From an uncultured bacterium (lineage in GTDB: Bacteria > DAOPZR01): DNA of 38,704 nt. Below the pieces are notes generated by a model. That model was not told where the DNA came from and searched no databases. It worked only from the letters and a program-made list of their open reading frames with translations. Shown piece by piece: positions 141 to 10,872 of this stretch (its first letter is position 1; each line of letters begins with the position of its first letter). The position numbers were made by a program, and so were the translations under genes. The stretch spans positions 1 through 38,704 of the forward strand of contig CAZWUZ010000004.1 in assembly GCA_964637655.1 (NCBI GenBank), in the 5' to 3' direction.

Positions 141-2708
141 TTACAAGCGTGGGTCGACGGGCTCGCTTTCGAGGGCGAGGACGCCAAACACACACTCGTG
201 GACGCGGCGGAGCGGCTCGCGGCGGACGAACCGCTCGAGCGCCTCAATGCCCAAAGCAAACTCGCGTAGCGCCAATGAACGTTTCGCGGCCAGGCCGCGG
301 GCGCGCAGGCGATCCAGATGCTGTGGCGCGGTGTATTCCGGGCCGTAGATGATGCGCAGATATTCGCGGCCGCGCACTTTGATTGCCGGCTGCACCAGTC
401 CGCGTGAGCCGCGCGCGATGAAGTCATGCGGTTTCACCACCATGCCTTCGCCGCCGGCAGCGGTCAGTTCCTCCCACCAGCGGGCCGCTGCCGCTTCCGC
501 CGACGGATCGGTGACGTCAAGCACCTGATACGGCGTGCGCAACAGCAGTTCCGGATCGGCGTCAGCCAGACGACCGAGCATGGTCATATGCCATTCGTGG
601 TCACGTGCCGTATGAACCGCATTCTCCGACGCCAGCAGATGGAACGGCGCAAGTTTCATATCCGTCAGTGCATCAACTTTCCAGCAATACCGGCGATAGG
701 CCGCCCGATACTGACTGACCATCTCCCGGCGTTCCAGCATGTGCTGCAGCAGTTCGCCCGCCTCGGGATAGCGGGCCGACGCCATCTGCAGGCATTCCGC
801 GGACGCGGTCAGCGCCCGCAACGCAGCATCCCCAACCGGCGCATACTGCTGGTGGAGCAAACTCTGCGCCTTGGCTGACCACGGCATGAGTTCCGCGTCG
901 AGACACAGCCAATCCGTCTGCAGTTCGTCCCAATAACCCGCAGTCGTAGCGGCTGCGACCAGGCGCTGTAGCATGGCGCGTTCGAGGTCGGGTTCGCTGA
1001 AGAACCGCCGGCCAGTGCGCGTATAGATGATGCCGCACCCCTCATCAACGATGCCGAAGCGGCGCCGCGCCGCCTCTTCGTCACGGCAGATAATCGCCAC
1101 GACCCGCGAGCCCATATGCTTCTGCTCGCAAATCACCCTTGCCACGCCCTGCTCGCGATAATACGCGAATGCTTCAGCCGGATATTCGAGGTACTCCGGC
1201 AGGGAACTGGTCGCGCAAGGCGACATGGTCGGCGGCAGATAGATCAGCCATTTGGGATTGGCCGAAAAGCGGCTGATTACTTCCAGCGCCGCGGTGGCAT
1301 TTTCCTCGCGCACCGTCACGGTACTCTTCAGCCGGGTGGTAATTATCCGTTTGCCGATAACATCCGCAAGATCAAGCATGTCATCCTGCTGCTGCTGCGC
1401 GCTGAGCGTGTCCGGTGCAGACACCGGCGTGAGCGGCCGTGCGGGAATTGCATAGGTCTGCCGCGCAGGCACGGCAACCAGTTCCTTTTCCGGATAGCGC
1501 AGTGCCGTCAGGCCGCCGCCAAACACACAACCGGTATCGATATTGATCGTCCGATTCAGCCATTCCGCCGCCGGCACCGGCGTGTGTCCGTACACCACCA
1601 TCGCGCGACCGCGGTATTCCTGCGCCCACGGATAGCGTACCGGCAGGCCATATTCATCGGTCTCGCCGGTCGTCTCGCCGTACAGGGCGAATTCCCGGAC
1701 CTTGCCGGAACCACGACCATGCATCGTCTCCGGCAAACCGGCATGCGCCACCACCAACCGCCCGTCATCGAGCACATAGTGGCTGACGAGATCATCGATA
1801 AACGCCTCAACGCGCGCCGTGAACGCCGGCGGCTCCTTGGCCAGTTGCGCCAGTGATTCAGCGAGGCCATGCGTTATCTGGGCATCCTTGCCACGCAGTT
1901 TCCGCAGCAGCCGGCTTTCATGGTTGCCGGGCACGCACAGGGCATTGCCCGATTCCGTCATGTCCATGACCAGCCGCAAGGTGCCGGCAATATCTGGGCC
2001 GCGATCAACCAGATCGCCAAGAAATACCGCCTTGCGCCCGGCGGGATGCGTCACCTGATAACGCGGGCCACTTTCCCCGGCTGACACCTCGCAGCGATAA
2101 CCAAGCCGCGCCAGCAGTTCGCACAATTCGGTCAGGCAGCCATGCACATCGCCGATTATGTCGAACGGTCCATGTTCGGCTTTCCGGTTATTCCATAGCG
2201 GCTCACGGGCCATAGTCACCGACGCCAACTCCTCCGGTGAGTTGAAGGTGAAAATATGGCGGAACCCCTCGCGCTGCAGGCCGCGGCGCGAACGCCGCAA
2301 CTGGCGGCATTGCTGCGGAATGACGTGCGGACCGAAGGCGCGGTCGGTGCGTGCGCGATTGCGGTCCTGACAGACCCTTTCCGGGAAATCGAGCACAATC
2401 GCCACCGGCAGACAATGATACGATCGCGCCAGCGCCACCAGCGGCCGTCGCGACTCCGGCTGGACATTCGTCGCGTCAATGACGGTCAGCCGGCCGGCCG
2501 CCAGGCGCCGGGCCGCGATAAAATGCAGCACGGCAAACGCATCGCCCGTGGCCGCCTGCGCGTTTTCATCGTCGGCAACCAGGCCGCGGCAGAAGTCGGA
2601 CGAGAGAATCTCCGTCGGCTTGAAATGCTGGCGCGCCCAGGTCGATTTGCCGGCGCCCGACGGGCCGATAAGCACCACCAGCGCCAGTTCGGGAATGGTC
2701 ACACGCAT
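141..2708 (-). CDS. pnkp: Polynucleotide kinase-phosphatase-ligase Pnkp (RNA repair)
   Basis: 855 aa; P-loop GPSGAGKST, metallophosphoesterase motifs GDVHG/GDLVDRG/GNHE, ligase motif EQKHMGSR, C-terminus ALESEPVDPRL; overlaps the hen1 stop. Confidence 0.95.
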   Translation of the reverse strand: MRVTIPELALVVLIGPSGAGKSTWARQHFKPTEILSSDFCRGLVADDENAQAATGDAFAVLHFIAARRLAAGRLTVIDATNVQPESRRPLVALARSYHCLPVAIVLDFPERVCQDRNRARTDRAFGPHVIPQQCRQLRRSRRGLQREGFRHIFTFNSPEELASVTMAREPLWNNRKAEHGPFDIIGDVHGCLTELCELLARLGYRCEVSAGESGPRYQVTHPAGRKAVFLGDLVDRGPDIAGTLRLVMDMTESGNALCVPGNHESRLLRKLRGKDAQITHGLAESLAQLAKEPPAFTARVEAFIDDLVSHYVLDDGRLVVAHAGLPETMHGRGSGKVREFALYGETTGETDEYGLPVRYPWAQEYRGRAMVVYGHTPVPAAEWLNRTINIDTGCVFGGGLTALRYPEKELVAVPARQTYAIPARPLTPVSAPDTLSAQQQQDDMLDLADVIGKRIITTRLKSTVTVREENATAALEVISRFSANPKWLIYLPPTMSPCATSSLPEYLEYPAEAFAYYREQGVARVICEQKHMGSRVVAIICRDEEAARRRFGIVDEGCGIIYTRTGRRFFSEPDLERAMLQRLVAAATTAGYWDELQTDWLCLDAELMPWSAKAQSLLHQQYAPVGDAALRALTASAECLQMASARYPEAGELLQHMLERREMVSQYRAAYRRYCWKVDALTDMKLAPFHLLASENAVHTARDHEWHMTMLGRLADADPELLLRTPYQVLDVTDPSAEAAAARWWEELTAAGGEGMVVKPHDFIARGSRGLVQPAIKVRGREYLRIIYGPEYTAPQHLDRLRARGLAAKRSLALREFALGIEALERFVRREPLRRVHECVFGVLALESEPVDPRL

Positions 2709-4099
2709 CGCGAGAACACTCCCATCTGGGTCGGAGCACCAACTTCATTGTCGAGCGAACCGACGGGCAGCATCCGCACCGTATACCCACAGCGCCCGGC
2801 AATGGCCGAACACCACGCCGCGAATTCATCGCGCCGCCATTCGAAACGATGGTCGCGATGGCGCAGATTCCCTGCCACCAGGCCGGCAAAACGGACGTTG
2901 TATTCGGCATTCGGCGTGGTAACGATGACGGTGCCAGGCCGGGCAAACTCAAATACCGACCGTTCGCACGCCGCCAGGCGCGGCGGGTCAAGATGCTCAA
3001 TGACCTCGACCAGGGCTGCGGCATCAAACCCGGCCAGACGCTGATCGCGATAGAGCAGCGACCCGTGCAGCAGGCGCACCTGCTTGCGCCGCGATTCCGG
3101 CAGGCGGTCCAGATGCAGGCGTTCCGCCGCCATAGCCAGCGAACGGTGCGAGACATCCATCCCGACAATCTCCTCGCTGCAGCGCGCGGCAAGCAATGCC
3201 TGAATAAGTTTCCCTTCACCACATCCCAGATCAAGCACCCGCCTGGCACCGCATTGGCGGATAACCGCAACCACTGCACCCAACCGCTCGTCGTTCAACC
3301 GCAGCGGCTGTTCGATTTTCTCTTCAGTGGCAGCTGGAGTTGCCGTATCCGGTTCCGGCTGATCTTCGTCCATCAGCCGGGCCAGCGCGGCGCGCGCCAA
3401 TCGCCCCTGATGCTTGAGATAGCGCCGCGCGATCTGCTCGCGTTCCGGGTGACCAGCCAGCCAACCCTCGCCATGCCGCAGCAGTTTTTCCACTTCATCT
3501 TCCGTCACCCAATAGTGCTTTTCATCATCCAGTACGGGGATGAGCACATAAAGGTGCGAGAGCAGGTCGCATAACCGGAGCGTCCCCTGCAAAGTGACGG
3601 ACAGATATGGCGATCTGCCCCAGTCAGGGAACTGTTCGTCAAGCGGCCCGCCAGTGGCGGTGACCGTATAGCCCAGCGGTTCGAACAGCCGCCGCAGCAA
3701 CCCCTCGCCACCACGGCAGGGCAATACCGGCAGGGTGGCGGTCAAGGGGAGCGCCTGTTCAGCCAGTTCCGCCCGCGCCGCGCAGTTCCCGGCCAGGGCT
3801 GTGCCAAAAACGCGCGCAATCGCCACGGAAAGGAATGAAGTCGCCGCATACGGCCGGTCATTGACATACTGGTCGAGCAAGCCGTCGGTACCGGCCGGCC
3901 CGCGACTATTGCGCACCAGTCCCACCGGGTCAACATCAAGCAGCAACGCCACCGTGCAGCATGCGTCACCGGTTTCCGGATAAAACACCTGCGCCCGGCC
4001 AAACGGCAACTCGAAGGTTTGCAGGCGTTGCGGGTGTTTGTGCAGCAGATACCCGAGATCGGTCGCCGGCGCCCGTGTCAGAGTAATGGTCAGCAGCAT
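2699..4099 (-). CDS. hen1: Hen1 3'-terminal RNA ribose 2'-O-methyltransferase
   Basis: 466 aa; N-terminus MLLTITLTRAPATDLGYLLHKHP, SAM motif VLDLGCGEG, EVIEH, RHRDHRFEW; directly upstream of pnkp. Confidence 0.95.
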   Translation of the reverse strand: MLLTITLTRAPATDLGYLLHKHPQRLQTFELPFGRAQVFYPETGDACCTVALLLDVDPVGLVRNSRGPAGTDGLLDQYVNDRPYAATSFLSVAIARVFGTALAGNCAARAELAEQALPLTATLPVLPCRGGEGLLRRLFEPLGYTVTATGGPLDEQFPDWGRSPYLSVTLQGTLRLCDLLSHLYVLIPVLDDEKHYWVTEDEVEKLLRHGEGWLAGHPEREQIARRYLKHQGRLARAALARLMDEDQPEPDTATPAATEEKIEQPLRLNDERLGAVVAVIRQCGARRVLDLGCGEGKLIQALLAARCSEEIVGMDVSHRSLAMAAERLHLDRLPESRRKQVRLLHGSLLYRDQRLAGFDAAALVEVIEHLDPPRLAACERSVFEFARPGTVIVTTPNAEYNVRFAGLVAGNLRHRDHRFEWRRDEFAAWCSAIAGRCGYTVRMLPVGSLDNEVGAPTQMGVFSRCV

Positions 4100-4137
4100 C
4101 CGGCGTTCCTCCCCGCGGTATCGGTCAGATAATCGTC

Positions 4138-4166
4138 AGTATACTATCGCCCTTTCTGACAGGCAA
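4138..4166 (-). promoter_or_regulatory. Sigma70-like promoter for hen1-pnkp
   Basis: Minus strand TTGCCT (4166-4161) - 17 bp - TATACT (4143-4138), followed by GGAGG before the ATG at 4099. Confidence 0.65.
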
Positions 4167-4225
4167 CCGCGCTGTGATAAGACAGGGTCATGGTTCTGAC
4201 GCCGCTTCGAGTTGCAATATTTCCC

Positions 4226-4480
4226 GGCGGGATAAAAACAGGGAGACGGGCCCAGTGCCCAGAAGAGTGCTGTGCCTTGAGCGCTGAGGACTGTGCGCTG
4301 TGTGATGGGTGCATGAGTAGTGACAATTGAGGATTGCCTCGTTCCCGAGTGGTCTCCTCTTCCTTGTCGGGTACACCCGGTTTTACCCGGGCGTACAATA
4401 CTCATCTCACCATCCACATTTGGCGCGGGGATGTGGTCCCCGTCCCCCCTGTGTCAGCGGGAGAAACACCGCAACCCGCC
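4226..4480 (-). ncRNA. Candidate structured ncRNA (~255 nt) with 7-nt repeats
   Basis: Nested stems 4480-4475/4231-4226, 4452-4439/4250-4238 and 4414-4399/4319-4304; hairpins at 4371-4396, 4414-4436, 4329-4340 and 4457-4472; G-U pairs work only on the minus strand; heptamer repeats at 4268-4302. Confidence 0.6.
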
Positions 4481-4497
4481 CCCCTGCTTACTGCCCG

Positions 4498-5001
4498 TTA
4501 TTTGATATCGGGGCAGGAAGTCGTGAACGCGAAGGCATTCAGGCTCTCCTGCAGGCTTTCGATGCGCGCTTTGAGTGCGGTGATGCGCGCATCCCGCTGC
4601 ACTTCCCCGATACTGACCGTCATGGGCATTTCCTTTTTGATTTCACGCCAGCGTTCCCGCTCGGCGTCATAGACCTCTTCGATTTCCTTTTCCGGTTCGT
4701 CATTGATATCCAGTTTGCGGAGCCATGCGATTTCCGCCTTGGCTTCCGCCAGGGCATAGATCATGTAGGGGATGCTCGTTTCGACCGCCGCGGTCGTGTT
4801 CCCCGCATTCGCCAGGGCGATGCCGGCCTTGACCAGCGCGAGCTTGTTGCGCTTGGCATCCAGTTGTGCCAGTTGCGCGTCGAAATCGAATTTCAGTACT
4901 TTGCTGGCCCGACGGCGGTTGTGCACCGCCAGTTTCACTTCCAGTTCACGGATTTCACCCGTGAGAGTGTTTTTCAGTTTCAACGCCGTAGAGATTTTCA
5001 T
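4498..5001 (-). CDS. Coiled-coil protein resembling the DIP1984-like/DUF6847 family (167 aa)
   Basis: Starts MKISTALKLKNTLTGEIRELE after SD AGGGGG; heptad helices; C-terminus RIESLQESLNAFAFTT; family resemblance recalled from memory. Confidence 0.65.
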   Translation of the reverse strand: MKISTALKLKNTLTGEIRELEVKLAVHNRRRASKVLKFDFDAQLAQLDAKRNKLALVKAGIALANAGNTTAAVETSIPYMIYALAEAKAEIAWLRKLDINDEPEKEIEEVYDAERERWREIKKEMPMTVSIGEVQRDARITALKARIESLQESLNAFAFTTSCPDIK

Positions 5002-5130
5002 GTGTGCCCCCTGGCCCGTTATTATTCTTCCCTTGCCTGCTGCTATATACGCCGCGCTGCCGGCGTTTGTTGCAATGTTTGTGCCGGTGCTCGTGCCAGC
5101 GCCTTGCCTGCGCTGTCTGTTATTCCTCAA

Positions 5131-5167
5131 AATGTACCACAACATACGTTTCCGTCAAGTGTCTTTT
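5131..5167 (-). promoter_or_regulatory. Sigma70-like promoter, twin copy 1
   Basis: AAAAGACAC-TTGACG (5158-5153) - 16 bp - TACATT (5136-5131) with extended -10 TG. Confidence 0.65.
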
Positions 5168-5217
5168 CTTATTCGATGAGCGGGTGAAGACATTCCGCCC
5201 AGGTGAATCTGAACTTC

Positions 5218-5253
5218 ATGACAGGACGCCGTACCGTGCTGGCGTCCTGTCAT
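5218..5253. other. Perfect 13-bp stem hairpin, possible terminator or processing site
   Basis: atgacaggacgcc (5218-5230) / ggcgtcctgtcat (5241-5253); no clear U-tract. Confidence 0.5.
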
Positions 5254-5284
5254 TCAGTCCCTGGTTGCCCCCTCCTGCCGCGGG

Positions 5285-5500
5285 TTACGCCGCGGCTTGT
5301 TTTGTTGCAGCGGCCTGCAATGTGGCCAGCTGCCTGGCGTTGACGTGTCTGGTCTGTGACGTGCAGCTACCGTCCGGGTTTGTGGTATGAATGATGATCT
5401 GGCAGAGTGGAAAGCTGTCGTTTTTCAGTTTGTAGAGTTGACGAGCCTTCACCTGCCGCTTTGTCCAGTATGATACTACGGTGATGGTCGTGTTCGTCAT
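5285..5500 (-). CDS. Small hypothetical protein (71 aa)
   Basis: SD GAGGTG; ATGA overlap with the upstream micro-ORF. Confidence 0.55.
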   Translation of the reverse strand: MTNTTITVVSYWTKRQVKARQLYKLKNDSFPLCQIIIHTTNPDGSCTSQTRHVNARQLATLQAAATKQAAA

Positions 5501-5616
5501 GGTCTGTTCACCTCATTTATCATGGCGTTCCCGTCGCTCTCTATGGCCGCGCGACCGGTAATGCCGGAACAGCGGGCAGCCGACACCCCGGTTGTCAAAG
5601 ATCTTGCCGTCAGCAT
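5497..5616 (-). CDS. Micro-ORF (39 aa, MLTARSLTTGVSAARCSG...VNRP), not in the ORF track
   Basis: TGATG overlap with the upstream stop and ATGA overlap with the downstream start. Confidence 0.4.
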   Translation of the reverse strand: MLTARSLTTGVSAARCSGITGRAAIESDGNAMINEVNRP

Positions 5617-5807
5617 CAGACGGGCATCTCCCGGTACTTCCGGGCATACTCCGCCATGTAGGCGGGATGCTTTTCCCGCCAGCGGCGGTCATACGCCTGT
5701 TTGTACTGCCGCCGCGCAGCGGTACGACACTGCGACGAGCAGTACTGCTGATTCCTGTGTCCTGCGGTGGGTTGGAAAACCGCGCCGCAAAGCCGGCAGC
5801 AACTCAC
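5616..5807 (-). CDS. Small Cys-rich (putative Zn-binding) basic protein (63 aa)
   Basis: SD AAGGAGG plus GTG; CRLC...YCSSQC motif followed by an Arg/Lys/Tyr-rich helix. Confidence 0.6.
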   Translation of the reverse strand: MSCCRLCGAVFQPTAGHRNQQYCSSQCRTAARRQYKQAYDRRWREKHPAYMAEYARKYREMPV

Positions 5808-5986
5808 GATTACGCCTCCTTCGGACCTCGCCGTTCACGTTCAGGTCGGTGTACAGCAACCGACACCTCCCGCGTTCAGCGTCTCAGTCCGATCTCAGCG
5901 CTACGTGTGTCGCATGGCTTTGCGCGCTCCTGTGTACGGCCTCGCGGCCGAAGTGGCGCCGGGTGGCCCCGGCGCGTGCTGCTCAC

Positions 5987-6023
5987 ATTCTACCACAAAC
6001 TTTCACATCGTCAAGTGTCTTTT
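5987..6023 (-). promoter_or_regulatory. Sigma70-like promoter, twin copy 2
   Basis: AAAAGACAC-TTGACG (6014-6009) - 16 bp - TAGAAT (5992-5987) with extended -10 TG. Confidence 0.7.
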
Positions 6024-6093
6024 TGCAGCATTCCAGACGGCACCCGGATTTGTCTTCGCCCTTCACTTACATATACCGTCCAGATGCGCGTCT

Positions 6094-6115
6094 CGTTGCA
6101 AATATATTTGCAACG
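6094..6115. promoter_or_regulatory. Perfect 22-bp palindrome, putative operator
   Basis: CGTTGCAAATATATTTGCAACG, between divergent transcription units. Confidence 0.55.
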
Positions 6116-6168
6116 CTGGCCACAGTTGTTCCGTAAAATATGATAGAGGCCGCAAAGGAGGGACACAC

Positions 6169-6402
6169 ATGGATTTCTTTCGGGAACACTTGAACAGCTT
6201 TCTGCTTTCTGTATTTCTATGGGCCGGGTCGCGCCTCTTCCCGGTTATCATTGTCGACACCCCGGAAGGCGAGGACGATGCCCTGCGCAACGTTCACTTT
6301 TCACTTTCCGAAGTCGATTTTGAGCGCTCAATATCGACGCACTACTGGGAGGCAGTCGAGAGTCGCAAAGCGCGGATGGCGGAGACCGTGCGTGAAGAAT
6401 AA
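6169..6402 (+). CDS. Hypothetical protein (77 aa)
   Basis: SD AAGGAGGG, ATG at 6169 (MDFFREHL...); overlaps the next gene. Confidence 0.55.
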   Translation: MDFFREHLNSFLLSVFLWAGSRLFPVIIVDTPEGEDDALRNVHFSLSEVDFERSISTHYWEAVESRKARMAETVREE

Positions 6403-6793
6403 ACCGGGAAACGCGGCATGGACGAATCGCAACCTGATATCCACCAATGACTGGTCAAATCGGGCATCACAGAAACTGTATGAACAATTCCGTGACCCGA
6501 ACCGGCGGGATATTCAACACCTCAAACAACTGTACGAGAGTGGTCGTCAATGCGGCGGTTGTTCATTTTTCGCCCCCTTCAACAGTGACTGGGGCCTGTG
6601 CTGCCATCCGCGGTCACCCCATCATCTGGAAACCGTGTTCGAGCATTTCACCTGCGCCGCGTTCGTCAATGAAGGGTGGCAGTCGCACAGTTTCTGCGAA
6701 CATCCCGAACAGCATGTGCTGCCCGATCCAATTCGACGCTCCCGCCAAGTAAAGGGCGACAAGCGCAATTCCAGACGGGCAAAACGCCGCTGA
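6392..6793 (+). CDS. Cys/His-rich protein, DUF3027-like metal-binding motif (133 aa)
   Basis: GTG at 6392; CGGCSFFAPFNSDWGLCCHPRSPHHLETVFEHFTC. Confidence 0.6.
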   Translation: MKNKPGNAAWTNRNLISTNDWSNRASQKLYEQFRDPNRRDIQHLKQLYESGRQCGGCSFFAPFNSDWGLCCHPRSPHHLETVFEHFTCAAFVNEGWQSHSFCEHPEQHVLPDPIRRSRQVKGDKRNSRRAKRR

Positions 6794-7044
6794 AGTAGTC
6801 ACTATCGGCCGTCAACCTGTTCTCCTTGGTGTTCTGTTGTAAATATCCACTCGCCCGTATATAATCCTGTCATGACGCTATTTCCCCCCACCGCTGGTCG
6901 GTGATTACCTGATCTGTTCGGTGCCGGTAACCAGTTGAATCCGCTCAAGGGACCGTCACGCAATATTGTTCATCATACTGAACACTCCCCGCCACTTCCC
7001 GGATTATGTTCATTACGATGAACTGATCCTGCCGCCACGTTCCT

Positions 7045-7116
7045 GTCCGGCACGCACGCGGCTATCGCGCGCTTGGTTGCCGGCCTGACAGCGCCGCCAA
7101 GCCCTCGCTTTTCTGA
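7045..7116 (+). pseudogene. Helicase C-terminal relic, copy C
   Basis: VRHARGYRALGCRPDSAAKPSLF*, homologous to the ends of 7357-7482 and 8883-9008. Confidence 0.55.
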
Positions 7117-7172
7117 ACCTGTCTGCCACGTGCGTTTTACGTCAGTTTTGCGCCAGTTGTTGATGCACTGGG

Positions 7173-7319
7173 ATCGTGGTGGAGGATGTCATCGCCGTGC
7201 TCGCTGACTCCACTAATCCCAAGTAGTATCTGCAACGCATGAAGTTGCGTGATCCTGAATTGGCGCAAGGGTATGTACAATTTGTACATACCCTTGCGGT
7301 GCCGACCGCGGACGGACCG
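7173..7319 (+). pseudogene. Bro-N (antirepressor-like) domain fragment
   Basis: IVVEDVIAVLADSTNPK*YLQRMKLRDPELAQGYVQFVHTLAVPTADG; in-frame TAG at 7224-7226. Confidence 0.65.
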
Positions 7320-7356
7320 CTCTTTCCGAGAGAGGTCTGCACCGGCTGAATAGTTG

Positions 7357-7482
7357 CTGCGCATCTACGATTATGTCGACCGTGCCGTGCCGATACTGCG
7401 CTGGATGTTTGCCCGGCGCGAACGCGACCATCGCGCGCCTGGCTACCGGCCAGACATCGCTGCCGAACCCTCGCTTTTCTGA
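7357..7482 (+). pseudogene. DEAD/DEAH (Res/TOTE-like) helicase C-terminal relic, copy A
   Basis: LRIYDYVDRAVPILRWMFARRERDHRAPGY...; out-of-frame LHRL just upstream; resembles the GRLHR..RIYDYVD..VP.L.RM..R..GY tail. Confidence 0.6.
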
Positions 7483-7503
7483 ATAATTGCTGGAGTTTCT
7501 GCT

Positions 7504-7902
7504 TCAGATACTGGTCATGGCATTGATGCGCGATTCAAGTGCGGAAAGGCCGGCAAAAATCTCGTCGAAATCAGGCACCGTACCGAACAGCATTGCCTGC
7601 ATGGTACGATAATCTTGGCGCAGTTCCGCCAGCATCGCAGGTGGCGGCAGCAGCCGGAAACTGCCAGGCACAGCCGACTCATAGCCCGCCCATGGGCAGC
7701 GGTAAAAACGCATTTTGAAGCGCACGACTTCCCGCAGCAGTCCCGGATCCGTCAGCGCGTGCTGGCAGATGGGCGTCCGGTTCAGGCGAAACAGGTCGTA
7801 GTAATGCCGCGAATGGCGCAGCGGTTTCGTCTTGCCCGGCGGGCAGTGCGCCTCCTGGTGCAGGATTGTCGCTTTCTCCCAGAACGTGCGTGCCGCCGCA
7901 AT
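7504..7902 (-). pseudogene. 5'-truncated AbiEii fragment with an open C-terminal third
   Basis: IAAARTFWEKATILHQEAH...SRHYYDL...DPGLLREVVRFK...INAMTSI*; open frame, N-terminal part missing. Confidence 0.85.
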
Positions 7903-7961
7903 CCCACGCTGGTCAAAGATAGCCCTTTCCAGTTATCAATAGTGTCGTACCATGAGCCGCC

Positions 7962-7990
7962 TTGTCATACAGCAGGGTGCGTGGTATACT
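7962..7990 (+). promoter_or_regulatory. Sigma70-like promoter for the PIN operon
   Basis: TTGTCA - 17 bp - TATACT with extended -10 TG. Confidence 0.7.
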
Positions 7991-8023
7991 GTGGCCGGGA
8001 CGATCGAAGACGAGGAGCGAGTT

Positions 8024-8515
8024 ATGCGTCGAATTTTGCGTCGCGCTGCCTATCGTCGTGAACGTATTTATGTCGATACTTCCGTCATCGGCGGTTGTTG
8101 TGATCCGGAGTTTCGCGAATGGTCAAATGCGCTGCTGCGGGATTTCCGGCACGGGGTTTACGCTTTGCTGGTTTCCGAACTGGTAGCAGCGGAAATTGCT
8201 GATGCCCCCGATGAAATACACATGGTTTACGCCCGTTTTTTGGAGAGTCCGCACCTCAGGATTCTGCCCATCACTCCTGAAGCGCAGGAACTGGCGGGAA
8301 AATACCTCCAACGGAAGATTGTCACGCCGAAATATTCAGATGATGCATTGCATATCGCTTTAGCCACCACTGCCGGGGCTGACATGGTGGTCAGTTGGAA
8401 TTTCCGGCATATCGTCCATTTTGATAAGATTCGGGCTTTCAATGCGGTCAATCAGGCCGCTGGTATGAAGCAGATAATGATTCATTCACCGCGAGAGGTG
8501 GCGAAAAATGGTTAA
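8024..8515 (+). CDS. PIN-domain (VapC-like) ribonuclease toxin (163 aa)
   Basis: IYVDTSVIGG...E...DDALHIALAT...VVSWNFRHIV; SD GAGGAG before ATG 8024. Confidence 0.88.
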   Translation: MRRILRRAAYRRERIYVDTSVIGGCCDPEFREWSNALLRDFRHGVYALLVSELVAAEIADAPDEIHMVYARFLESPHLRILPITPEAQELAGKYLQRKIVTPKYSDDALHIALATTAGADMVVSWNFRHIVHFDKIRAFNAVNQAAGMKQIMIHSPREVAKNG

Positions 8516-8663
8516 TATCATGGCAACCGTAAGAAAGATACGAGATCGCAATTACGCGCGCCTGAAAAAAGCCTCGCCCGGCGAGAAAATCATGGACGTC
8601 AGGAGCAAGGCGGAGGCCCTTCACAAGAAACTTGGTCTGCGCAAACGTCGCCTGGCCAGTTAG
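8508..8663 (+). CDS. Small basic protein (51 aa), probable antitoxin partner of the PIN gene; not in the ORF track
   Basis: MVNIMATVRKIRDRNYARLKKASPGEKIMDVRSKAEALHKKLGLRKRRLAS; SD GAGGTG; overlaps the PIN stop. Confidence 0.65.
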   Translation: MVNIMATVRKIRDRNYARLKKASPGEKIMDVRSKAEALHKKLGLRKRRLAS

Positions 8664-8842
8664 CGCTTCTTCTGTGGCGTCAGCGGAATTTCACCTTTTC
8701 CGGGGCGCTGGCAATCTGCTCACCGTCGCATAATTTGTCATATCACGGTCCAAAAACAGGATCAAATATTTGCGACTGCATTTCCACGGCGCGCAAATAA
8801 GTGTGGGCGATTTTCGCCACCATCGCTGCTGTGCGTGGCGCC

Positions 8843-9432
8843 CCGCTCTTTCCGGAAGCGGTCTGCACTCGCTGAATAGCTACTGCGCATCTGCGATTAT
8901 GTCGACCATGCCGTGCCGATGCTGCGCCGGATGTTCACCCGGCGTGAGCGCGGCTATCGCGCGCTTGGCTACCGGTCTGACAGCGCTGCCGAACCCTCGC
9001 TTTTCTGAATAATTGCTGGAGTTTCTGCTGCTTCAGATACTGATCATGGCATTGATGCGCGATTCAAGTGCGGAGAGGCCGGCAATGATCTCGTCGAAAT
9101 CAGGCACCGTGCCGAACAGCATTGCCTGCATGGTACGATAATCCTGGCGCAGTTCTGTCAGCGTCGGAGGTGGCGGCAGCAGACAGAAACTTCCGGGCAC
9201 AGCCGACTCATATTCTGCCCAGGAGCAGCGGTAGAAACGCATCTTGAAGCGCACGACCTCGCGCAGTCATTCCGGATCGGTTAGCGCGTGCTGGCAGATT
9301 GGCGTCCGGCTCAAGCGAAACAGGTCGTAGTAGTGCCGCGATTGGCGCAGCGGTTTCGCCTTGCCCGGCGGGCGGTGCGCCTCCTGGTGCAGGATTGTCG
9401 CTTTCTCCCAGAACGTGCGTGCCGCCGCAATC
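8843..9432. repeat. Direct repeat B
   Basis: Homologous to 7317-7903. Confidence 0.9.
8883..9008 (+). pseudogene. Helicase C-terminal relic, copy B
   Basis: LRICDYVDHAVPMLRRMFTRRERGYRALGYRSDSAAEPSLF*. Confidence 0.6.
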
Positions 9433-10031
9433 GTCCGGACCATCGTTTGGGGCACGCGGAACACGTGCGGAAAATGTGCCGCGGCATACGGACTGATTGC
9501 TTTTTCCTCGTTCGGCACCCAGGCCGCCAGCGGGCCGATTTCCAGGCGTATCTGCGGCTGGATTGCCATCAGCGAGAAGGCGCGCGGATAATGCACCAGC
9601 ACGTCCTGCCCTTCGGTACTTATACCAACCGGCATGCCGGCGCGCGCGGACAGGTCCTGCTGCAGTTTTCCGGCAAACTCGCTCTGCAAATACTGGGTAG
9701 CGCGCTGATTGGCGGCCTTGTTCCAGATATCCTGCTGTGTCGCGCTGCGGTCCGCCCACGCCTCCTGCTTTGAACAGCCCAGCACACGCCAGTCGAGAAT
9801 CAGATCAATGTCCTCGGAAAAACGTTCGATGGCGGCAAATGCCTTGGACAGGCTCGTACCGCCCTTGAATGCCATCTGTGCATGCCACGGGCTGTCATGA
9901 AACAGGTAATCAAGCACCCAGCACACCCAAAAATCCTTTTCGACTATCGCTTCGTGCACGCGCATGGCCTGCGCGGCGGCGCGAAACACTTCGCCCCTTT
10001 CACGCTCCGGCCGGCAGGCAAAATCACGCAT
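9033..10031 (-). pseudogene. AbiEii/AbiGii-family nucleotidyltransferase toxin interrupted by an in-frame TGA at 9267-9269
   Basis: IVEKDFWV, FKGGTSLSK, RFSEDIDL, RTFWEK, SRHYYD motifs; the frame continues after the stop (DPE*LREVVRFK); the paralogous fragment has Leu at this position. Confidence 0.85.
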
Positions 10032-10674
10032 GCCGCTGACGCCGTTCGGGTGCACTCTCGGTCAGTTGCCGGACAGTTTCATGTACCCAGGCCGTCACGT
10101 AACCGGTTTCAGTCGCAGCCCGGGCAAGGTCCCCAGCTTTGAATCGCTTGCGCAGTTGCGCACGTGTCGATTGGTCAAGCCGTTCCCGGCCAAGCGCCTT
10201 GATTGCCTGTACCAGCACAGCAGTGGCCGGCGAGAGTTTTGCCGTTTCACGATTAGCCCGATGCAGAAACAGAATTGTGCCGCCAGCCCACTCGTATTTT
10301 CTGGTCGGTCCGTTACTGACATAGCGCCACTGCGACGGCACCTGTTCGGACAGGCCTAGCAGGTTCAACGCCGCTTCACCGGCCGGGGTGATGGTCCAGC
10401 CGTACTCACGCGCGATAGCCCGGGCAATGGCATCCGGATCCGGCGCCACCCATGTGCCCAGCAGTTTGCTGTACCGTGGATAGTCATACACGCCGTGCCG
10501 GATGCGGCGAATCGTGCCCTTCTCTGCGAGACGGCTCAGCACTTTCCGCACCGCCACGTTTCCGCCAAGACCGGAAAAATCTTTGGCCGTGAACACACGT
10601 TTACCACCGCTGCCGCGCATGATTTTTATCACTTTATCATTCAGTGAGTTATCGTGTGTTCTTCTACCGTTCAT
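10024..10674 (-). CDS. DUF6088-family AbiEi-like type IV antitoxin/regulator (216 aa)
   Basis: VFTAKDF...VRKVLSRL...GTIRRIRHGVY...GEAALNLLGLSEQVP; overlaps the AbiEii start. Confidence 0.85.
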   Translation of the reverse strand: MNGRRTHDNSLNDKVIKIMRGSGGKRVFTAKDFSGLGGNVAVRKVLSRLAEKGTIRRIRHGVYDYPRYSKLLGTWVAPDPDAIARAIAREYGWTITPAGEAALNLLGLSEQVPSQWRYVSNGPTRKYEWAGGTILFLHRANRETAKLSPATAVLVQAIKALGRERLDQSTRAQLRKRFKAGDLARAATETGYVTAWVHETVRQLTESAPERRQRHA

Positions 10675-10710
10675 GTCACATAGATTAGTACTTATGTGTG
10701 ACATTGTCAA
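10673..10710 (-). promoter_or_regulatory. Promoter with overlapping inverted-repeat operator; leaderless geometry
   Basis: TTGACA (10710-10705) - 17 bp - TAATCT (10687-10682); inverted repeat ATGTCACA (10673-80) / TGTGACAT (10697-704). Confidence 0.65.
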
Positions 10711-10742
10711 TGGCAATATACAGAACTCCCGTGGACCGTGGC

Positions 10743-10783
10743 AACAAAAACGAGAAGCCGCCTCCTCTGTTGAGAAAGCGGCT
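10743..10783 (-). terminator. Probable intrinsic terminator after the tRNA
   Basis: RNA AGCCGCUUUCUC-AACA-GAGGAGGCGGCU followed by UCUCGUUUUUGUU. Confidence 0.55.
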
Positions 10784-10797
10784 GTTCGAGTCCTAAA

Positions 10798-10872
10798 TGG
10801 CTCCCCGAGCTGGACTCGAACCAGCAACCCTTGGATTAACAGTCCAATGCTCTACCATTGAGCTATCGGGGA
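10798..10872 (-). tRNA. tRNA-Asn (GTT)
   Basis: TCCCCGATAGCTCAATGGTAGAGCATTGGACTGTTAATCCAAGGGTTGCTGGTTCGAGTCCAGCTCGGGGAGCCA; full cloverleaf with encoded CCA. Confidence 0.97.

Follow-up and report, generated by a model that had tools for sequence, protein, structure and literature searches.

Two kinds of bacterial operon come closest to the arrangement described here. In the rsr-yrlBA-rtcBA operons, which are RNA-repair operons controlled by RtcR, the gene for the Ro60 protein (Rsr) is accompanied by a closed, stem-ended non-coding RNA. In the hut operon of Bacillus subtilis, a protein of about 150 amino acids (aa), HutP, is encoded first and is followed by an RNA with XAG motifs spaced 7 nucleotides (nt) apart and then by the enzymes. 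The binding of XAG sites by hexameric HutP is described in the abstract of PMC2425495. In Salmonella, according to passages of PMC7790460, the Y RNAs are located between or beside the Ro60 and RtcB genes; the same paper calls it unknown what Ro60-Y RNA does in rtc operons, and a passage of PMC4201824 gives a length of 80–130 nt for Y RNAs. Here we describe a locus in a 38,704-nt stretch of DNA from an uncultured bacterium (positions 1 to 38,704 of contig CAZWUZ010000004.1, assembly GCA_964637655.1; the window), the minus strand of which carries, in this order, a gene for a 167-aa protein, a 398-nt gap holding a folded RNA, and the RNA-repair genes hen1 and pnkp. The small gene and the RNA together form a real and recurrent module that is apparently undescribed as a protein-RNA pair. 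An initial annotation of this DNA had placed all of these parts where we find them; its interpretation held for a likeness of the protein to the DIP1984/DUF6847 family, for the RNA partner and for a tie to repair genes, and was not supported for a coiled-coil protein and for a general tie to Pnkp-Hen1.

The small gene lies at 4498–5001 on the minus strand and was assigned, from its open frame, remote homologs and a structure model, as a divergent member of the DIP1984/DUF6847 family. Its codon-position GC (0.59/0.38/0.70) is coding-like and its start codon is consistent with the N-termini of the homologs, which supports the gene as first annotated. An overlapping open-reading frame (ORF) on the plus strand (4327–5187) was rejected as a gene on its codon-position GC (0.57 at position 3) and on its lack of homologs. 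The protein failed the curated cut-offs of the family models NF038048 and PF20935: no Pfam or NCBIfam model matched it at cut-off, PF20935 did not match even at E ≤ 10, and NF038048 (DIP1984_fam) aligned with it end to end at 14.5 bits (cut-off 70, E = 0.029). Membership is assigned not from a direct model score but because of 79 remote homologs and a profile match to the structure in PDB entry 3kdq. These 79 homologs, 140–175 aa long and 24–52% identical (29–40% for the best ten or so), came from a full HMMER search, against one relative only from a word-indexed search. Among the 58 homologs that were aligned, NF038048 matched 49 and PF20935 (DUF6847) matched 31, and the homolog profile matched 3kdq over 1–151, full length, at E = 9.9e-6. 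The nearest clusters in a protein-language atlas were those of DIP1984/DUF6847 at 0.93, 'septicolysin' also being represented and several of the clusters being viral. The window protein is therefore like the DIP1984/DUF6847 proteins in length class, in its full-length profile match and in having family members as homologs, and unlike them in its low model score and lack of a Pfam match; the family has no function on record. Together, these comparisons indicate that the likeness, which the initial annotation had proposed, is real, though distant.

An AlphaFold model of the protein (pLDDT 97.1, pTM 0.86) contains helices at residues 3–26, 40–65, 77–96 and 133–160 and a small three-stranded sheet within residues 104–129. 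The protein is thus modeled as a four-helix bundle with a small sheet and not as the plain coiled coil that had been proposed for it. Nothing resembling a nuclease, in fold or in motif, came out of the fold searches. Neither PADLOC nor PHROGs has a family for the protein clade, and a known defence or phage family was ruled out on that basis.

Downstream of the stop codon, a predicted structured RNA of 256 nt (4234–4489, minus strand), with a long closing helix and five U at its end, fills much of the gap before hen1. The whole gap (4100–4497, minus strand) folds at −169.1 kcal/mol (z = −4.35, with none of 100 shuffles as good), and the narrower segment 4225–4492 folds at −125.6 (z = −5.60, none of 200 shuffles as good), a stronger fold than that of the plus strand over the same segment (−114.2, z = −3.23). 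In both the minimum-free-energy and the centroid structures, the closing helix, P1, is formed by a 5′ strand at approximately 4462–4489 and a 3′ strand at approximately 4236–4262, which runs into the U run at 4234–4238. The self-enclosed structure of about 255 nt proposed at first was thereby borne out, with a correction to its start: the helix begins 8 nt past the stop codon of the 167-aa gene, not about 18 nt past it. The 4234–4489 stretch is single-copy in the assembly, which ruled out a repeat element, and it matched no Rfam family even at E ≤ 10.

The most distinctive feature of this RNA, which the initial annotation had missed, is an array of nine CA steps at 4271–4329 (minus strand), spaced 7, 7, 8, 7, 7, 7, 7 and 7 nt apart. 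The steps lie at 4329, 4322 and 4315 and, after the 8-nt gap, at 4307, 4300, 4293, 4286, 4279 and 4272, a 3 + 6 layout in which the three earlier units were read by eye and the last six form an exact chain (4271–4307) that none of 200 dinucleotide shuffles reached. The six-unit chain is unique in the 3.99-Mb assembly, counting both strands (about 8 Mb of strand sequence), in which there are also four five-unit runs, and the single DIP1984-like gene of the genome is at most 230 nt away from it. Directly after the array comes the 3′ strand of P1, which ends in the U run. Further upstream in the RNA, a twin GAUG motif (4401–4415, minus strand) was recognized by eye as the likely counterpart of a motif in related RNAs described below. 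A 179-nt contig identical to 4271–4448 was present in one run labeled as metagenomic RNA-Seq cDNA, which is probably DNA, so that this match speaks for presence only; the flanking genes had no cover in that run, which is no evidence either way.

Sister genes of the 167-aa gene are followed by RNAs of the same design. In a first set of 18 loci, mostly from Verrucomicrobiota metagenome-assembled genomes (MAGs), the DNA 3′ of the gene was 70–96% identical between MAGs, and in its alignment a closing helix of 12 bp and a GAU-N-GAU motif are accompanied by an invariant CA every 7 nt with free bases between. A CA spacing of 7 nt is not that of a reading frame. The consensus spacing of 7, 7, 9, 7, 7, 7 and 7 resembles the 3 + 6 layout of the window. 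Chains of at least five pyrimidine-A steps (P ≤ 0.01) followed the gene in 21 of 39 genome loci, with never more than four on the reverse strand. In an independent set of 82 metagenome and viral loci, from which eight duplicates were removed, chains of five or six were present in 51 of the 66 loci that had at least 200 nt of flank and were scored for arrays, with never more than three on the reverse strand. A closing helix was predicted in all of the array-bearing loci that were folded (24/24), its 3′ strand following the array.

The initial annotation had suggested aligning the DNA downstream of homologs and testing it for covariation. In 34 diverse sister RNAs, 89.7% of the cells of the two helices P1 and P1b pair, compared to 83.2% in shuffles; both-side changes occur in 12 of the 19 pairs, and none of 500 shuffles reaches either measure. 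When the partner columns were slid, pairing fell to 26–53%. The predicted closing helices of the sister RNAs are thus shown to covary, and the G-U pairs among them place the RNA on the gene strand. P1 and P1b are the helices that inspection by eye and RNAalifold settled, and the sister elements matched no Rfam family. These comparisons support the downstream RNA as a recurrent partner of this protein clade. The window RNA resembles the sisters in its same-strand position 3′ of the gene, in its long closing helix and in carrying at least five heptad pyrimidine-A steps before the closing strand. No sister profile detects it, and it is therefore counted as a member on the strength of where it lies, its closing helix, the twin GAUG and the array; blastn and nhmmer searches with the window RNA against 87 loci likewise gave no significant match. 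Hairpins whose 7-nt loop is of the tRNA anticodon-loop type number 51 across the 34 sister RNAs, compared to 4.4 in shuffles. These loops (pyrimidine, U, three free bases, purine, any base) occur once or twice per sister RNA, in the first 130 nt and with varying 'anticodons', and no such hairpin is found in the window RNA.

The two genes that follow the module in the window form an unambiguous Pnkp-Hen1 RNA repair pair, as first annotated. The hen1 gene (2699–4099, minus strand) encodes an RNA 3′-terminal 2′-O-methyltransferase with Hen1_L and methyltransferase domains (TIGR04074, 712 bits, cut-off 340), and pnkp (141–2708, minus strand) encodes a polynucleotide kinase-phosphatase-ligase with PNKP_ligase, AAA_33 and Metallophos domains (TIGR04075 over residues 1–855, 1432 bits, cut-off 750). 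Both are full length, exceed the cut-offs of their equivalog models and overlap by 10 nt as one operon, which is as in described Pnkp-Hen1 systems. The locus differs from those systems in the module upstream, which they are not known to carry.

Among the relatives of the module, the neighboring repair genes are of the rtc type. RtcB or Ro60 was found in 5 of the first 18 loci, a set in which 36 of 77 ORFs were scanned in eight loci and every ORF of 110 aa or longer in nine others, L093 being excluded. RtcB is present in L097, the gene in L099 is immediately preceded by Ro60 and followed by RtcB, and L094 and L103 hold RtcB fragments. In L107, a single frame (5001–6269) begins with the N-terminal ~100 residues of the DIP1984-like protein and continues with RtcB, of which the C-terminal two thirds are present; this looks like a deletion that took out the RNA. 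Many loci of this first set lie inside dense tRNA arrays, where the RNA is followed by tRNA genes without a terminator, so that there is no protein gene downstream for it to regulate. In an even sample of 401 genomes of the phylum Verrucomicrobiota, the gene occurred in 13 genomes, and RtcR, RtcB, RtcA or Ro60 accompanied it in 8 of these 13 loci. RtcR stands divergently beside the gene in L146, L149, L151 and L152; L146, L147 and L151 have RtcA or RtcB after the gene, in the same orientation; the order in L150 is RtcR, Ro60, gene, RNA, RtcB; L141 has Ro60 and an RtcB-like gene; and in L143, RtcB lies 4 kb off. For the metagenome loci, neighbors were scored with hidden Markov models (HMMs) built from RtcB, RtcA, RtcR, Ro60, Hen1 and Pnkp sequences gathered in this work, and an RtcB frame started within 1 kb downstream in 14 of the 32 loci that remained after removal of duplicates and had 1.5 kb or more of flank. 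Ro60 was found in one metagenome locus and a kinase-domain-like ORF directly upstream in two, and Hen1 was found in none of those scored. The company of repair genes that had been anticipated was thus seen with rtc genes (8/13, 5/18 and 14/32) and not with hen1. Gene neighborhoods therefore strongly tie the clade of the window protein to RNA repair by way of operons with RtcB, RtcR, RtcA and Ro60, and also to tRNA arrays, but not to Pnkp-Hen1 in general; judged from the loci compared, the window is a rare case of this clade meeting Pnkp-Hen1.

Other features were seen at individual loci of these sets. In L150, a 134-nt match to the tRNA model (6942–7075) lies right after rtcB and may represent either an insertion-bearing tRNA or an RNA that resembles tRNA. 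The context of L109 is unlike that of the repair loci, with matches to a group II intron domain and a SAM-alpha riboswitch (965–1104 and 1478–1553) just before the DIP1984-like gene and a SAM synthetase after it. The RtcB matches of L121 and L123–L125 (G401:C69, G403:C19) come in two pieces, covering model positions 1–73 and 144–425 in one frame, a pattern that points to inserted sequence or to divergence of the middle segment in these genes.

Promoter-like elements were found as matches to consensus only. The two sigma-70-like sites listed in the initial annotation are present: one with an extended −10 before the small gene (5131–5158, minus strand) and one before hen1 (4138–4166, minus strand), with 9 of 12 hexamer positions and a 17-nt spacer, which would give hen1 a promoter of its own. 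Within 3900–5600, four sigma-70-like sites were observed compared to 0.7 expected. A sigma-54-like −24/−12 element with one mismatch to consensus lies at 5071–5086 (minus strand), 69 nt before the start codon. The window holds two such elements compared to 1.71 by chance, so that its position alone is suggestive; clear sigma-54 elements stand 62–72 nt before the gene in the RtcR-linked loci L146, L149 and L151. RtcR was not found in the assembly of the window, and none of 68 metagenome loci had a sigma-54 element within 160 nt upstream. The element is a possible but weak further tie to repair. Upstream of the promoter region, an inverted repeat at 5213–5258 (18 nt, 89% complementary, 10-nt loop) may be the terminator of a neighboring unit.

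Given these results, we consider that there is an even chance that the small gene and the RNA are a conserved two-part module of RNA-damage-response operons that acts as a protein-RNA particle. One transcript would carry both gene and RNA, and P1 would close the RNA on itself, shielding both ends and, with the U run, setting the 3′ end. The single-stranded array would then be occupied by several copies of the protein, so that each 7-nt unit has one copy, which reads its pyrimidine-A step. The stable particle would act in trans beside the enzymes of repair, where it might be a decoy for toxins that cut RNA, a sensor of them, or a platform for RNA that has been broken, in a role analogous to that of Ro60-Y RNA in other rtc operons. 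In the window the module has been joined to Hen1-Pnkp, whereas elsewhere it heads RtcR/RtcB operons or sits in tRNA arrays. The likeness to rsr-yrlBA-rtcBA extends to tRNA-like pieces, as the sister RNAs, like YrlA, bear anticodon-loop look-alikes. The protein is unlike Ro60, being small, helical and unrelated to the TROVE ring, and the RNA is unlike Y RNA, being about twice as long, carrying the heptad array and being missed by the YrlA model.

Several results weigh against the particle reading. A Foldseek search of the PDB gave no match at E ≤ 0.001, the best match of the VIA wide fold search (Z = 8.7) was to generic helical bundles, and 3kdq was absent from both lists. The nhmmer profile of the sister RNAs matched the window at 4271–4294 with E = 8.6 only, and the top matches of the 34-sequence profile in the whole genome lay elsewhere than the window RNA. 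Both the array and repair neighbors are absent from the canonical DUF6847 loci L004, L005, L006 and L008, which come from unrelated genomes; the lack of repair neighbors there implies that the repair link belongs to the present clade. Even within the clade, 5 of the 13 loci of the phylum sample have no repair gene, and 18 of the 32 metagenome loci lack RtcB within 1 kb. None of 80 related hen1 loci has a DIP1984-like ORF up to 4 kb to each side, so that the Hen1-Pnkp pairing is rare and could have arisen here by accident. In the RtcR-linked loci, the RNA is separated from rtcB by strong terminators, which suit regulation in cis equally well.

This last point leads to a serious rival, attenuation of the HutP type, which we regard as possible if rather unlikely. 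The protein would bind the spaced triplets and control the choice between a stop at P1 and its U run (or at the separate rtc terminator) and read-through into hen1-pnkp or rtcB. The order of regulator, RNA, terminator and enzymes in the window and in L149–L152 fits this model, as does the 7-nt spacing, which equals that of the HutP XAG sites, and a sigma-54 promoter beside divergent rtcR precedes the small gene in L146, L149 and L151. With this promoter before the small gene and a terminator before rtcB, rtcB would obey RtcR only by read-through. However, the copies in tRNA arrays are followed by tRNA genes without a terminator, more than half of the metagenome loci have no RtcB close by, and the array lies inside P1 without overlapping the separate terminator hairpins. 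The protein also has no HutP match among its Pfam matches at E ≤ 10, its order of secondary structure differs from that of HutP, its motif would be pyrimidine-A instead of XAG, and, unlike the hut RNA, the module has nine units in a 3 + 6 layout within a closing helix, with many copies lacking a downstream gene to regulate. The particle is favored over pure attenuation because the tRNA-array copies have neither terminator nor gene to control, because many loci have no nearby RtcB, because closed ends are typical of stable RNAs and because the sister RNAs, though not that of the window, bear anticodon-loop look-alikes.

Three further explanations carry much less weight. The fold could be the large terminator of an unrelated small gene, an ordinary 3′ untranslated region (UTR) with CA spacing that arose by chance, as the U run after the helix and the lack of an alignable relative of the window RNA would allow. 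This reading is already disfavored, and we regard it as very improbable, since ~8 Mb of strand sequence contains a single six-unit chain, close to the sole DIP1984-like gene, and since most sister loci have the array after the gene, confined to the gene strand. Equally slim is the prospect of a system like type III toxin-antitoxins, in which the repeat RNA would restrain the protein, an RNase, whose damage the neighboring repair enzymes would mend. A repeat RNA does stand beside a small protein, and the window includes an island with PIN and AbiE toxin-antitoxin genes, but the repeats of type III antitoxins are tens of nt long and are located before the toxin gene, and the protein has neither a PADLOC or PHROG family nor a nuclease-like fold or motif. 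The least probable alternative, also disfavored already, is that the RNA is a bacterial Y RNA of the Ro60 system. In L150 and L099 the module does stand between or beside Ro60 and RtcB, as a passage of PMC7790460 describes for the Y RNAs of Salmonella, and L141 and L150 show that the Ro60/Y system and the module can share one locus. Against this, the YrlA model (RF02553) has no match to the window element at E ≤ 10, the Y RNAs in the cited passage of PMC4201824 are shorter, most loci have no Ro60, and the assembly of the window, which is 90.6% complete, has no TROVE match. A separate YrlA-like match also stands beside the Ro60 gene of L141; this and the miss by the YrlA model ruled out identity with Y RNA. 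The L141 match is sub-threshold and lies directly before the Ro60 gene, with five tRNA genes following (141–243 and 1825–2592 of the locus).

A more specific form of the particle reading, which we consider improbable, is that the particle serves as a sentinel for RNA-cutting toxins. Pyrimidine-A steps are the most cleavage-prone in single-stranded RNA. The protein would display nine evenly spaced steps of this kind as cleavage targets, and the sister RNAs would add their anticodon-loop look-alikes. Cuts would release 7-nt pieces with 2′,3′-cyclic phosphate ends, which would switch on or feed the repair enzymes, RtcR/RtcB or, in the window, Pnkp-Hen1.

The remainder of the neighborhood is of a variable kind, and the repair operon forms the edge of that region. 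A toxin-antitoxin island (7952–10872) lies beside a tRNA gene (10801–10872, minus strand) and includes a PIN-domain ORF (7952–8515, plus strand), an AbiEii toxin (9267–10055, minus strand) and an AbiEi/DUF6088 antitoxin (10024–10827, minus strand). The intervening ~2.7 kb (5200–7900) holds short ORFs only, without a Pfam match and with flat codon-position GC, and may be non-coding or decayed.

No published account of this protein-RNA module was found in a literature search that left out supplements and Burroughs and Aravind 2016 (NAR 44:8525). Among the matches listed, those on RtcB with RNA motifs held nothing relevant and those for 'septicolysin' were gene annotations or unrelated topics; in the literature searched, the name 'DUF6847' was not found and 'DIP1984' was scarcely used. 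The module bears on a standing question, namely what triggers bacterial RNA-repair operons and what their accessory RNAs do. If the module is what it appears to be, the place of Ro60-Y RNA is taken in many rtc operons by a second protein-RNA pair, which is unrelated to it and which, in the window, adjoins the other main repair system, Pnkp-Hen1. This would provide a lead on function for a family of proteins whose structure, but not role, is known, and would add a class of RNA with an unusual 7-nt architecture that is directly open to binding tests. Were the sentinel reading true, RNA repair operons would carry a built-in damage sensor.

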